A stretch of 64,000 nt of DNA from Escherichia phage WPEC4, in the sequence record PV682947.1; one strand, given 5' to 3'. Below the pieces are notes generated by a model, which searched no databases, had not been told where the DNA came from, and saw nothing but the letters and a program-made list of their open reading frames with translations. A program made the translations under genes and the position numbers. Positions 60,068-61,993 of this stretch are shown piece by piece. Within the stretch, counting starts at the first letter, position 1. The number at the start of each line of letters is the position of its first letter.

Positions 60068-60142
60068 GGCCCTGTAGCTCAATGGGAGAGCTGTCGGCTC
60101 ATAACCGATAGGTAGCTGGATCGAAACCAGCCAGGGCCACCA
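60068..60142 (+). tRNA. tRNA-Met (anticodon CAT)
   Basis: Hand-folded cloverleaf; acceptor GGCCCTG/CAGGGCC; loop CTCATAA; CCA encoded. Confidence 0.75.
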
Positions 60143-60144
60143 AC

Positions 60145-60219
60145 GTCTTTATGGTGTAATGGATAGCACAGGAGTCTTCTAAACTCTTAGTCAAGGTTCG
60201 ATTCCTTGTAAAGACACCA
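60145..60219 (+). tRNA. tRNA-Arg (anticodon TCT)
   Basis: Acceptor GTCTTTA/TAAAGAC; loop CTTCTAA; T-arm CAAGGTTCGATTCCTTG; CCA encoded. Confidence 0.75.
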
Positions 60220-60415
60220 GAACATTTTAACATGAATTAGCTCAAGTGATTTGAACCCACTACTGATCATGGTGGCAGAGAATGAGGCAAGTATGTCAGA
60301 CATTATAAACAAAGGCCACGGTTATATTAGAAGACATAAATGCTCGAAGAGCACCGTTCGTTGAGAACGGGGGTTGGTGGAGTCACCATTCATGGTAAAA
60401 TGTTTTAAAAAACTA

Positions 60416-60445
60416 TTGACAACTAACATTATTTTATGTTAGATT
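60416..60445 (+). promoter_or_regulatory. tRNA promoter
   Basis: AACTATTGACAAC-17-TTAGATTAT. Confidence 0.5.
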
Positions 60446-60453
60446 ATAAGTAT

Positions 60454-60544
60454 GGAAGGGCAAATCGACGTGGCGACGAAAACGGTCTTGAAAACCGCCG
60501 AGCTTGAAAGAGCCTTGGGAGTTCGACTCTCCCTCCTTCCGCCA
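60454..60544 (+). tRNA. tRNA-Ser (anticodon TGA), type II
   Basis: Acceptor GGAAGGG/TCCTTCC; loop CTTGAAA; long variable arm; CCA encoded. Confidence 0.65.
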
Positions 60545-60548
60545 GATT

Positions 60549-60634
60549 GGTAGATTGGTGAAATGGTAGCCACGACAGTTTGCTAAACTGTAGTCGGAAA
60601 CGGCGTGTAGGTTCGAGTCCTACATCTACCGCCA
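60549..60634 (+). tRNA. tRNA-Ser (anticodon GCT), type II
   Basis: Acceptor GGTAGAT/ATCTACC; stem ACAGT/ACTGT; loop TTGCTAA; long variable arm; CCA encoded. Confidence 0.75.
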
Positions 60635-60764
60635 AGTTCTTTTTAATATAGCTTACTTTAATAGAGTAAACTTTCGGCAGATGGCCTCCACCATCTTACC
60701 GATAACTCATAGTTAGTGGTGTGAACACTGGCTATTTTAAAAAGAATTTAAATATTAGTATTTA

Positions 60765-60852
60765 GGTGAGTTAATTCCGTAGGGGTAGCGGGGCAGACTG
60801 TAAATCTGTTATCATTGCGATTCGGGTGGTTCGACTCCATCACTCACCACCA
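60765..60852 (+). tRNA. tRNA-Tyr (anticodon GTA), type II
   Basis: Acceptor GGTGAGT/ACTCACC; loop CTGTAAA; long variable arm; CCA encoded. Confidence 0.7.
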
Positions 60853-60858
60853 AATTAA

Positions 60859-60944
60859 GATGAGTTGGCTGAATGGTTTAAGCGGCGGACTGTTAATCCG
60901 TGTTCGAAAGAACGATATAGGTTCAAATCCTATACTCATCGCCA
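60859..60944 (+). tRNA. tRNA with anticodon GTT (Asn?) and an atypical long variable arm
   Basis: Acceptor GATGAGT/ACTCATC; loop CTGTTAA; 15-nt variable hairpin GTTCGAAAGAAC; CCA encoded. Confidence 0.5.
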
Positions 60945-60951
60945 GAATTAT

Positions 60952-61029
60952 GGACTTGTAGAGTTAAGGTAAACCCCCCAGTCGCCAAGAGGCTTCTGGA
61001 ATTGCAGGTATCGAATCCTGCCGAGTCCC
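60952..61029 (+). ncRNA. tRNA-like element without a canonical anticodon arm
   Basis: 7-bp acceptor-like helix GGACTTG/CGAGTCC and T-arm-like GCAGG...CCTGC, but no 5-bp/7-nt anticodon stem-loop; no CCA. Confidence 0.3.
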
Positions 61030-61035
61030 AGCTTT

Positions 61036-61110
61036 GCTCCTATAGTATAATGGCTATTACAACGGTTTTGTAATCCGTGGATCTCTGTTCGATTCAGAGT
61101 GGGAGCACCA
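61036..61110 (+). tRNA. tRNA-Thr (anticodon TGT)
   Basis: Acceptor GCTCCTA/TGGGAGC; T-arm CTCTG-TTCGATT-CAGAG; loop TTTGTAA; CCA encoded. Confidence 0.65.
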
Positions 61111-61385
61111 ACACAACATTAAGAGCACTGTGATTGATCGTCGTATCCTGTGCACAAGGTCTGTTCGAAAGACAGTGTTCTTAGTATTGTGTTGATCACA
61201 CAAAAAGAGTTACCTGAAACTTGACCGGAGTAGGGTTGGATGGGGCAAAAGAAGAAGCGGCTCTCCCATCGACAGCAACGAAGAATAATATTTGACTTTG
61301 GTTTTGTATTATTTTAAGTTAGCTTACCGAACGTAGGGCTAGTCACCCAATGGGATACTCGTCACTGTCCCACTCAATAAAACTA

Positions 61386-61415
61386 TTGACAACCAATAGT
61401 AAAATGTAGTATAGT
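61386..61415 (+). promoter_or_regulatory. tRNA promoter
   Basis: AACTATTGACAAC-18-TATAGT. Confidence 0.5.
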
Positions 61416-61426
61416 AAAGAGGTAGG

Positions 61427-61500
61427 GCGTTCTTGGTGTAGCGGTAGCATTCCGTCCTTCCAAGTCGGCGGCACGAGTTCGATCCTCGTAGAACGCTCCA
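61427..61500 (+). tRNA. tRNA-Gly (anticodon TCC)
   Basis: Acceptor GCGTTCT/AGAACGC; T-arm ACGAG-TTCGATC-CTCGT; loop CTTCCAA; CCA encoded. Confidence 0.6.
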
Positions 61501-61598
61501 AATTATTTAATAAAGGGTTGCCAGAAAACTTTCTCTTTTACTCATGGTTTTCTCCTTCTCTCACACCTCTTCTGGTTGCCCTTCATTAAATGATTTAT

Positions 61599-61674
61599 TG
61601 GTTTGTAGTGTAGTCAGGTAGCACACGACACTTTGACTGTCGTAGGTTTGGTTCAAATCCAGACAGACCAGCCA
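61599..61674 (+). tRNA. tRNA-Gln (anticodon TTG)
   Basis: Acceptor TGGTTTG/CAGACCA; stem CGACA/TGTCG; loop CTTTGAC; CCA encoded. Confidence 0.65.
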
Positions 61675-61679
61675 TATAA

Positions 61680-61756
61680 CGGAATTTAGCTCAGTTTGGT
61701 AGAGCATACGCTTTGGGAGCGTAGGGTCGCAGGTTCGAATCCTGCAATTCCGACCA
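61680..61756 (+). tRNA. tRNA-Pro (anticodon TGG)
   Basis: Acceptor CGGAATT/AATTCCG; D-arm TAGCTCAGTTTGGTAGAGCA; stem TACGC/GCGTA; loop TTTGGGA; CCA encoded. Confidence 0.8.
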
Positions 61757-61762
61757 ATTTAA

Positions 61763-61836
61763 TGTTTCGTAGTTCAATGGTAGAACCCACGACTGATAAT
61801 CGTGAGACACAAGTTCGATTCTTGTCGAAACAACCA
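61763..61836 (+). tRNA. tRNA-Ile (anticodon GAT)
   Basis: Acceptor TGTTTCG/CGAAACA; stem CACGA/TCGTG; loop CTGATAA; CCA encoded. Confidence 0.75.
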
Positions 61837-61837
61837 A

Positions 61838-61910
61838 TTTCCCGTTAGACTTACAGGATAAGAGTTCCACAACTTATTGTGATGCTGGTTCGAATCCAGC
61901 ACGGGATACC
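61838..61910 (+). ncRNA. tRNA-like element / possible tRNA pseudogene
   Basis: Good T-arm GCTGG-TTCGAAT-CCAGC and 6-bp acceptor, but anticodon hairpin CACAA-CTTA-TTGTG has a 4-nt loop; no CCA. Confidence 0.3.
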
Positions 61911-61914
61911 TAAT

Positions 61915-61993
61915 AGCGGGATAGAGGAGTCTGGTCGTCCTCGCCAGTTTCATATGCTGGAGATCATTGGTTCAAATCCAATTCCCGCCTCCA
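61915..61993 (+). tRNA. tRNA with anticodon CAT (second Met-type; initiator or Ile-lysidine candidate)
   Basis: Acceptor with A1xC72 mismatch; D-stem GAGG/CCTC; loop TTCATAT; T-arm ATTGG-TTCAAAT-CCAAT; CCA encoded. Confidence 0.65.

Follow-up and report, generated by a model that had tools for sequence, protein, structure and literature searches.

The tRNA gene cluster of Escherichia phage WPEC4 (PV682947.1), located at positions 60068-61993 of the 64,000-nucleotide (nt) window analysed here, encodes a tRNA-Asn(GUU) that is built as a class II tRNA, in which a variable region of 10 nt or more folds into a hairpin that covariation maintains. While the canonical bacterial tRNA-Asn has a variable loop of 4-5 nt and a U1:A72 pair, the phage tRNA has a 15-nt hairpin and G1:C72. 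Comparison with its host counterparts suggests that it is most likely an Asn-charged decoder of AAU and AAC codons, and we assign a probability of roughly 0.7 to the fold, its conservation and the probable Asn charging taken jointly.

The tRNA-Asn gene (60859-60944, 86 nt) is called by ARAGORN with a gtt anticodon and scores 62 bits with the Rfam family RF00005, for which the gathering score is 29. The 5' half of the tRNA reads GAUGAGU-UG-GCU-GAAUGGUUUA-AGC-G-GCGGA-CUGUUAA-UCCGU and its 3' half, with the variable arm in brackets, (GUUC-GAAA-GAAC-GAU)-AUAGG-UUCAAAU-CCUAU-ACUCAUC-G-CCA; the body contains G1:C72, a 3-bp D stem, G73 and an encoded CCA. An earlier reading of the DNA made without database searches (hereafter the original prediction) had drawn the 15-nt variable hairpin on this GTT tRNA, and the minimum free energy (MFE) fold, RNAalifold, ARAGORN, Rfam and covariation concur on it, no software having assigned a standard short variable loop. 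Covariation was assessed on 13 sequences, the tRNA-Asn of the window and twelve homologues from phi92-like, T5-like, Proteus and Karamvirus phages, for which RNAalifold independently returned the same five helices. All four pairs of the variable arm have changed on both sides and 100% of the corresponding cells are paired, while the structure as a whole is 99.7% paired, versus 32-50% after a shift of the 3' partners by 1-3 columns.

Full-length relatives were found by BLAST with the 86-nt gene in Justusliebigvirus phi92 (85 nt), Epseptimavirus (86 nt), Tequintavirus AKFV33 (83 nt), Novosibvirus (85 nt) and Karamvirus, and the T5-like long-arm tRNA-Asn is present in 285 phage records. Using a pattern that combines the Asn anticodon arm with an over-long spacer to the T arm, we scanned IMG/VR; among the 121 matches listed, at least 94 are Asn-gtt tRNAs of 79-91 nt according to ARAGORN, and at least 75 distinct long-arm tRNA-Asn(GUU) sequences from viral contigs could be distinguished. 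In these 75 sequences, still among the matches listed, the variable region measures 11-19 nt and forms a hairpin in 72 cases, usually flanked by 0-1 unpaired nt on the 5' side and 3-4 unpaired nt on the 3' side, with a GNRA loop in 48 (GAAA in 39) and a UUCG loop in 3. G73 is present in 72 of the 75, the 1:72 pair is U:A in 47 and G:C in 26, and the mean MFE of the variable region is -3.04 kcal/mol versus -0.44 kcal/mol for shuffles. The compensatory changes found in very divergent sequences, the bias towards GNRA and UUCG loops and the fixed 3-nt spacer on the 3' side together indicate that the hairpin is probably under purifying selection.

A second viral scan, which admitted both short and long spacers, gave 17 long-arm versus 91 class I tRNA-Asn among the matches listed, so that about 16% of the viral tRNA-Asn sampled in this way have the long arm, some of the class I genes possibly being host genes at prophage ends. 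When the first pattern was applied to one genome per species of 185,579 bacterial and archaeal species, 76 matches were obtained, 17 of which are long Asn-gtt tRNAs, none of them enterobacterial; 12 of these 17 lie inside dense arrays holding 7-36 tRNAs within 8 kb, and one amounts to no more than a tandem duplication. BLAST detected no full-length copy in 5,426 complete E. coli genomes, the sole match being a chance one of 35 nt in yobD. The original prediction had considered such an arm unexpected for Asn; the arm is genuine, but it is not peculiar to this phage and is widespread in phages and tRNA arrays. Covariance model R1, run over all loci, matched every tRNA, so that alignment A2 mixes isotypes and was left unused. 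The class-II-shaped tRNA-Asn is restricted to phages and tRNA arrays, with hardly any copy in a cellular housekeeping set, and appears to be undescribed in the literature searched, which did not extend to the older papers on the tRNA genes of T5, BF23 and phage 5. The reviews examined do not name Asn among the class II tRNAs.

Other isoacceptors of the viral loci (L010-L129) were surveyed for their length as well. There, 14 of 40 tRNA-Leu(UAA) measure 74-79 nt and consequently lack the long arm, and forms of at least 80 nt were seen for Cys-GCA (9/39), Thr-UGU (7/35), Trp (5/42) and Ile-UAU (8/13), the long Thr and Cys arms having the geometry of the Asn/Tyr type.

Which amino acid the phage tRNA receives was examined through its identity elements. 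Positions 26-43 (18 nt, comprising the anticodon arm and G26) are identical to those of E. coli asnT, and the identity set of the E. coli asparaginyl-tRNA synthetase (AsnRS), namely G34, U35, U36 and G73, is complete; in E. coli, Asn identity can be transferred with no more than the three anticodon bases and G73 (PMC9976931). The products of E. coli asnT, asnU, asnV and asnW share the GUU anticodon, G73, CCA and positions 26-43 with the phage tRNA, but they are class I tRNAs of 76 nt with U1:A72, a 4-bp D stem and a 5-nt variable loop, whereas the phage tRNA, with its 86 nt, G1:C72, 3-bp D stem and 15-nt hairpin, matches asnT at 53 of 86 positions. We propose that the elements read by AsnRS, G34-U35-U36 and G73, have been kept on a class II scaffold, that the host AsnRS would charge this tRNA and that it would decode AAU and AAC, thereby adding to the host supply for the AAU-rich genes of the phage.

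Leu and Tyr identities are excluded: Tyr identity depends critically on A73, the same base is essential for Leu identity, and G73 counteracts both LeuRS and TyrRS (PMC9976931). The phage tRNA has G73 and U36, where a tRNA-Leu or tRNA-Tyr would have A73 and a tRNA-Tyr, in addition, U35 and A36. The bacterial tRNA-Tyr(GUA) nevertheless shares the long arm, the 3-bp D stem, G34 and U35 with the phage tRNA-Asn, as well as the geometry of the arm (0-1 nt on the 5' side, 3-4 bp, 3-4 nt on the 3' side), and differs from it by A36 and A73 instead of U36 and G73.

Ser is the sole amino acid that seriously competes with Asn. The seryl-tRNA synthetase (SerRS) relies for recognition on the arm, on G73 and on the acceptor stem and disregards the anticodon (review passages including PMC9976931). 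Charging of the phage tRNA by SerRS would place Ser at AAU and AAC, as a deliberate or tolerated Asn-to-Ser mistranslation, and the long variable arm, G73, G1:C72, C11:G24 and G9 of this tRNA all speak for it, as does the arm of the window's own tRNA-Ser(GCU), which is also just 4 bp long and capped by GAAA. Himeno et al. reportedly obtained Ser acceptance in 1990 by lengthening the variable stem of tRNA-Tyr and changing A9 to G. Against serylation, the pair that follows G1:C72 is A2:U71 in the phage tRNA, whereas G2:C71 is conserved in all E. coli tRNA-Ser (PMC9976931), and 47 of the 75 family members among the matches listed have U1:A72, not G1:C72. The geometry of the arm is also closer to that of Tyr than to that of Ser: in the same loci, the Asn arms mostly have 3-4 bp followed by 3-4 unpaired 3' nt, like the phage Tyr arms, while the phage Ser arms mostly have 5-7 bp and 1 unpaired nt and the Leu arms 2 unpaired nt, the arm of the window's tRNA-Asn having 4 bp and 3 unpaired 3' nt. 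Moreover, a Ser acceptor would have no need of the complete AsnRS identity set, which is strictly conserved. Based on A2:U71, on the prevalence of U1:A72 in the family and on the Tyr-like arm, we rate charging with Asn as likely, and serylation seems very unlikely to us.

Several points weigh against an Asn-charged class II tRNA, an identity that we infer from sequence comparison. Class II synthetases, including AsnRS, approach the tRNA from the side of the variable loop, and for this reason the extra arm could hinder charging. The combination of a long variable arm, G73 and G1:C72 also falls within the recognition set of SerRS. A class I tRNA-Asn with an anticodon arm identical to that of the host is found in phages such as Kuttervirus Maynard, and the extra arm is therefore not the sole viable solution. 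Finally, the experiments on "T5 tRNA-Asn" concern a different tRNA, which belongs to class I and has a mutated anticodon stem.

Alternatively, the gene could descend from that of a class II tRNA (Tyr, Ser or Leu) whose anticodon and discriminator base were switched, and the arm would be a neutral relic that AsnRS tolerates. The tRNA-Tyr gene lies 6 nt upstream and its acceptor sequence GGTGAGT differs once from the GATGAGT of tRNA-Asn, the arm geometry matches that of Tyr, and the D arms of the family resemble the Leu, Ser or Tyr types. Yet the most similar tRNA within the loci is not consistently Tyr or any other isotype, identities of 0.5-0.73 being at background level, and the hairpin is kept by compensatory changes with its loop bias and fixed 3' spacer, which makes a relic unlikely. 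In the absence of a consistent nearest isotype within loci, a recent remolding from the neighbouring tRNA-Tyr was rejected.

As to what a selected arm would do, the PARIS nuclease AriB cleaves E. coli tRNA-Asn(GUU) between positions 40 and 41 and was modelled as bridging this site and the D loop, and cleavage also depends on parts of the tRNA beyond the anticodon arm (PMC12409363). We tentatively raise, as our preferred though doubtful explanation, the possibility that the extra arm serves as a shield against nucleases that bind the body of tRNA-Asn near the hinge, such as AriB-type Toprim tRNases. By altering the shape of the hinge, the arm would prevent binding by host or competitor nucleases and toxins that read the tRNA-Asn body, while the anticodon arm read by AsnRS would remain untouched. 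Such a steric shield is plausible because the hairpin is selected, the anticodon arm is host-like and the variable arm protrudes from the tRNA between the D loop and the 40/41 site. The conservation of the hairpin along with a host-like anticodon arm contrasts with the published escape route from tRNA nucleases, which consists of mutations in the anticodon loop and stem (PMC10264068). If true, a change of scaffold class would represent a second, general escape route beside such mutations, and could perhaps account as well for the long-arm Cys, Thr and Trp tRNAs and the short-arm Leu tRNAs of phage clusters.

The tRNA-Asn of T5 helps to rescue growth under PARIS (PMC12409363). This tRNA (T5t17) is the same isoacceptor in the same neighbourhood as the long-arm genes, next to tRNA-Cys and followed by RNA3, but it is a class I tRNA of 78 nt with a remodelled anticodon stem and a U30.U40 mismatch at the AriB cleavage site. 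The T5 data (PARIS rescue, no amber suppression) were consequently rejected as evidence for the long-arm tRNA-Asn. The class I variant occurs in 134 T5-like records, versus the 285 with the long-arm type, and its gene adjoins or overlaps that of a homing endonuclease (GIY-YIG / T5orf172; L210 2953-3525, corresponding to T5 33952-34524). It appears to have replaced the long-arm variant of other T5-like phages, and co-conversion with the endonuclease is suggested. The own tRNA-Asn of phage Bas34 was insufficient against PARIS (PMC12409363). In Bas34, which is SelmaRatti (MZ501103 72604-72689; L212 4605-4690), the tRNA-Asn turned out to be a deletion chimera that is not called by ARAGORN, in which two-thirds of a long-arm tRNA-Asn, from its 5' side, are fused to the 3' end of tRNA-fMet, the acceptor stem of the chimera being broken. 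Since this tRNA is a broken chimera, its insufficiency is uninformative and was rejected as an argument against a protective arm; the chimera also bears on the reading of the published PARIS and OLD results.

Beyond the tRNAs, which were all that the original prediction described, we found two tRNA-like RNAs, three promoter repeats and structured spacers in the cluster. The first tRNA-like RNA (60952-61028) has an acceptor-like stem, the conserved sequence TAGAGTTAAGGTAAACC, a variable hairpin and a T-like arm whose loop of 8 nt is TATCGAAT. Its counterparts are RNA3 of T5 (L210 2878-2950, minus strand), known as a "putative tRNA-like RNA", and an RNA of phi92 (L003 1588-1664), and it is always located directly 3' of tRNA-Asn in phAPEC8-like, phi92-like and T5-like phages. 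Across these three lineages, the motif TAGAGTTAA-AACC is invariant, the 8-nt loop of the T-like arm reads YATCRAAT, and both stems have been re-paired by compensatory changes. RNA3 of T5 shares with the RNA of the window the motif TAGAGTTAAG(G)TAAACC, the 8-nt loop YATCGAAT and the position directly 3' of tRNA-Asn; the stems differ and are fully re-paired, and no 3' CCA is present in this phage. Other stable RNAs named in the T5 tRNA region are RNA2, RNAIV and RNA2H. The second tRNA-like RNA (61838-61910), confined to Phapecoctavirus, has a 6-bp acceptor-like stem, a D-like arm and a canonical T arm (GCUGG-UUCGAAU-CCAGC), and a 5-bp hairpin with a 4-nt loop replaces its anticodon arm.

A promoter-like box, AAAACTATTGACAA followed by an 18-nt spacer and TAnnnT, is present in three copies starting at 59829, 60416 and 61386, which divide the cluster into three transcription units. 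We predict that three sigma-70-type promoters would drive the 12 tRNAs, the two tRNA-like RNAs and the structured spacers, with one terminator ending the array. The leader (59865-60067) folds with an MFE of -76.8 versus -53.3 for shuffled sequences (z = -5.6), and the spacers at 60220-60415, 60635-60764 and 61501-61598 reach z values of -4.3, -4.5 and -5.2, respectively; in the leader and in the spacers between tRNAs, the own 5' and 3' ends pair into long closing stems. The structured leader and spacers are reminiscent of the tRNA region of T5, for which "stable RNAs of unknown function" are annotated. Neither the spacers nor the two tRNA-like RNAs matched any family in Rfam.

These features bear on another role for the variable arm of tRNA-Asn, in maturation (RNase P/E/Z processing of the packed precursor) or in stability during host RNA decay. 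It would fit the dense packing of the genes, with 2-7 nt between several tRNAs, the strong structure of the spacers (z -4.3 to -5.6) and the tRNA-like RNA that always directly follows tRNA-Asn. However, other tightly packed class I tRNAs of the same transcripts do without such an arm, and T5 retains RNA3 after a class I tRNA-Asn. We regard a role in maturation or stability as quite unlikely.

The original prediction counted twelve cloverleaves, and all of them were recovered: ten by ARAGORN at the places where they had been drawn (Met-cat, Arg-tct, Ser-gct, Asn-gtt, Thr-tgt, Gly-tcc, Gln-ttg, Pro-tgg, Ile-gat and Met-cat), and tRNA-Tyr(GUA) by Rfam RF00005, which gave eleven tRNAs in total (the additional one at 60765-60849, 39 bits against the gathering score of 29). 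The twelfth, Ser-TGA, was established by its fold and its orthologue. At 60454-60540, it has only a sub-threshold match to the selenocysteine tRNA (tRNA-Sec) in Rfam (37.4 bits, E=4.5e-5) and was missed by ARAGORN, but its MFE fold comprises the acceptor, anticodon (UGA), variable and T arms, and the orthologue is annotated in phi92 (L003 837-926). Its Sec-like D hairpin is UCGACG-UGG-CGACGA, the corresponding one of the phi92 orthologue being GCGCA-GCGG-UGCGC. Rfam E-values of 1e-8 to 1e-15 mean that the tRNA calls are not due to chance. All 12 tRNAs end with N73-CCA, as had been claimed, but the tightest spacing is not the 4 nt originally given: just 2 nt (60143-60144) separate the first CAT tRNA from tRNA-Arg. 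The tRNA-Tyr(GUA) is 84% identical to the T5 tRNA-Tyr and has one additional nt between its acceptor and D stems. The tRNA-Thr(UGU) has a U31.U39 mismatch, and C41 where the host has A41; changing A41 to C strongly lowered AriB cleavage of tRNA-Lys (PMC12409363).

The roles predicted for the two tRNAs with a CAT anticodon need revision in part. The first one (60068-60142), initially assigned to Met, is instead ileX-like, with 76% identity to ileX, 69% to metT and 65% to metY. It begins with GGCCC like ileX (C4:G69, C5:G68) and has the ileX T stem and G27.U43; a CAU anticodon, an ileX-like acceptor and ileX as closest relative are the sequence traits of a tRNA-Ile2, and the determinants for TilS are reportedly those described by Ikeuchi et al. 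in 2005. It is thus most likely a lysidine-modified tRNA-Ile2 that would decode AUA, a role that had been considered for the second CAT tRNA but does not belong to it. Its T loop, AUCGAAA (A54, A60), is unusual, the phi92 counterpart being AUUGUAA; the A54 and A60 signature is otherwise known from eukaryotic initiator tRNAs.

For the second CAT tRNA (61915-61993), both the A1xC72 mismatch and the initiator-like character noted originally were confirmed. It has A1xC72, G2:C71, C3:G70, G4:C69, A11:U24 and U73, an AGATC variable loop and a TTCAAAT T loop as in E. coli metY, and shows 70% identity to metY and 67% identity to the annotated initiator fMet tRNA of T5. The 1x72 mismatch, G2:C71, C3:G70 and A11:U24 are among the bacterial initiator determinants, said to go back to Lee et al. 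in 1991 and Guillon et al. in 1992. The three G:C pairs (29-31/39-41) of initiators are lacking in its anticodon stem (CCAGU/GCUGG), and it further differs from metY by its anticodon loop, UUCAUAU instead of CUCAUAA, and by U73. The annotated T5 initiator tRNA has the same set of features. In the sampled phage loci, 29 distinct CAT tRNAs have a 1x72 mismatch, whose bases vary (UxC or CxU in relatives), and 21 of these 29 initiator-like tRNAs also lack the three G:C pairs in the anticodon stem. These features make the second CAT tRNA an initiator-like tRNA-Met comparable to that of T5.

Region 59800-62200 (2.4 kb) shows 100% identity to Escherichia phages WPEC2 and WPEC6 and at least 97.7% identity to its 30 best-matching records, which are phAPEC8-like phages (Stephanstirmvirinae, Phapecoctavirus); in 69 records, the alignment spans 80% of the query or more. 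It corresponds to the tRNA operon array of a phAPEC8-like coliphage (Phapecoctavirus), and the cluster is already known, most of its tRNAs being annotated in public records. In one record, the genes for tRNA-Tyr and for the second CAT tRNA carry a pseudogene label, and Ser(UGA) is missing from the annotation of both records examined. Neighbouring proteins comprise only small unknown proteins and a TelA-like protein, and none with a tRNA-related function was found. Coordinates are collected in Table 1.

Table 1. Coordinates in the 64,000-nt window of the RNA genes, signals and neighbouring protein gene of the tRNA array.
Feature	Coordinates	Strand	Basis or detail
Promoter-like box P1	59829..59858	+	TTGACA-18-TAGGAT, first copy of the AAAACTATTGACAA repeat
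Structured leader RNA	59865..60067	+	5' and 3' ends pair; long closing stem directly before the first tRNA
tRNA with anticodon CAT, ileX-like, probably tRNA-Ile2	60068..60142	+	ARAGORN, Rfam, sequence comparison
tRNA-Arg(UCU)	60145..60219	+	ARAGORN, Rfam
Promoter-like box P2	60416..60445	+	
tRNA-Ser(UGA), non-canonical, extended Sec-like D hairpin	60454..60544	+	Fold, sub-threshold Rfam
tRNA-Ser(GCU)	60549..60634	+	ARAGORN, Rfam, fold
tRNA-Tyr(GUA)	60765..60852	+	Rfam, sequence comparison
tRNA-Asn(GUU), class-II-shaped	60859..60944	+	ARAGORN, Rfam, MFE fold, RNAalifold, covariation
tRNA-Asn variable arm	60902..60916	+	15 nt: GTTC-GAAA-GAAC hairpin, then GAT unpaired; MFE, RNAalifold, covariation
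tRNA-like RNA, homologue of T5 RNA3	60952..61028	+	Fold, comparison; 7 nt after tRNA-Asn CCA
tRNA-Thr(UGU)	61036..61110	+	ARAGORN
Promoter-like box P3	61386..61415	+	TTGACA-18-TATAGT, 11/12 matches
tRNA-Gly(UCC)	61427..61500	+	ARAGORN, Rfam
tRNA-Gln(UUG)	61599..61674	+	ARAGORN, Rfam
tRNA-Pro(UGG)	61680..61756	+	ARAGORN, Rfam
tRNA-Ile(GAU)	61763..61836	+	ARAGORN, Rfam
Second tRNA-like RNA	61838..61910	+	Fold
Initiator-like tRNA-Met(CAU), second CAT	61915..61993	+	ARAGORN, Rfam, sequence comparison
Intrinsic terminator (strong), end of cluster	62109..62132	+	
TelA-like (toxic anion resistance) protein	62519-63685	+	Pfam PF05816, E=3.8e-33; directly downstream of the cluster

The codon supplementation proposed from the set of anticodons is in line with codon use. 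The window has a GC content of 38.8%, and the GC content at third codon positions is 0.31 in the phage versus 0.57 in E. coli, the latter in a small sample of ten genes. Of the 16 codons with the strongest enrichment in the phage relative to these ten genes, 11 are served by tRNAs of the cluster, AAU being enriched 2.2-fold and AUA 2.6-fold. Codon use therefore fits supplementation, and a role in the evasion of defences is also compatible with it. Known nuclease targets are present in the set: Thr-UGU and Asn-GUU for PARIS, Thr-UGU and Pro-UGG for P2 OLD, and Tyr for retron Eco7.

For annotation, the cluster illustrates a pitfall, as pipelines call the first CAT tRNA Met and flag the second one and Tyr as pseudogenes. 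Textbooks and current reviews confine tRNAs with a long variable arm to Leu, Ser, bacterial Tyr and Sec; an Asn family would widen the known range of tRNA architecture. The long-arm tRNA-Asn is also an easy means of recognising tRNA genes that are of phage or mobile descent, and it provides a natural scaffold for the design of orthogonal tRNAs. It further offers a handle on the purpose of phage tRNAs, that is, codon supply versus immunity to PARIS, P2 OLD, retron Eco7 and colicin E5.

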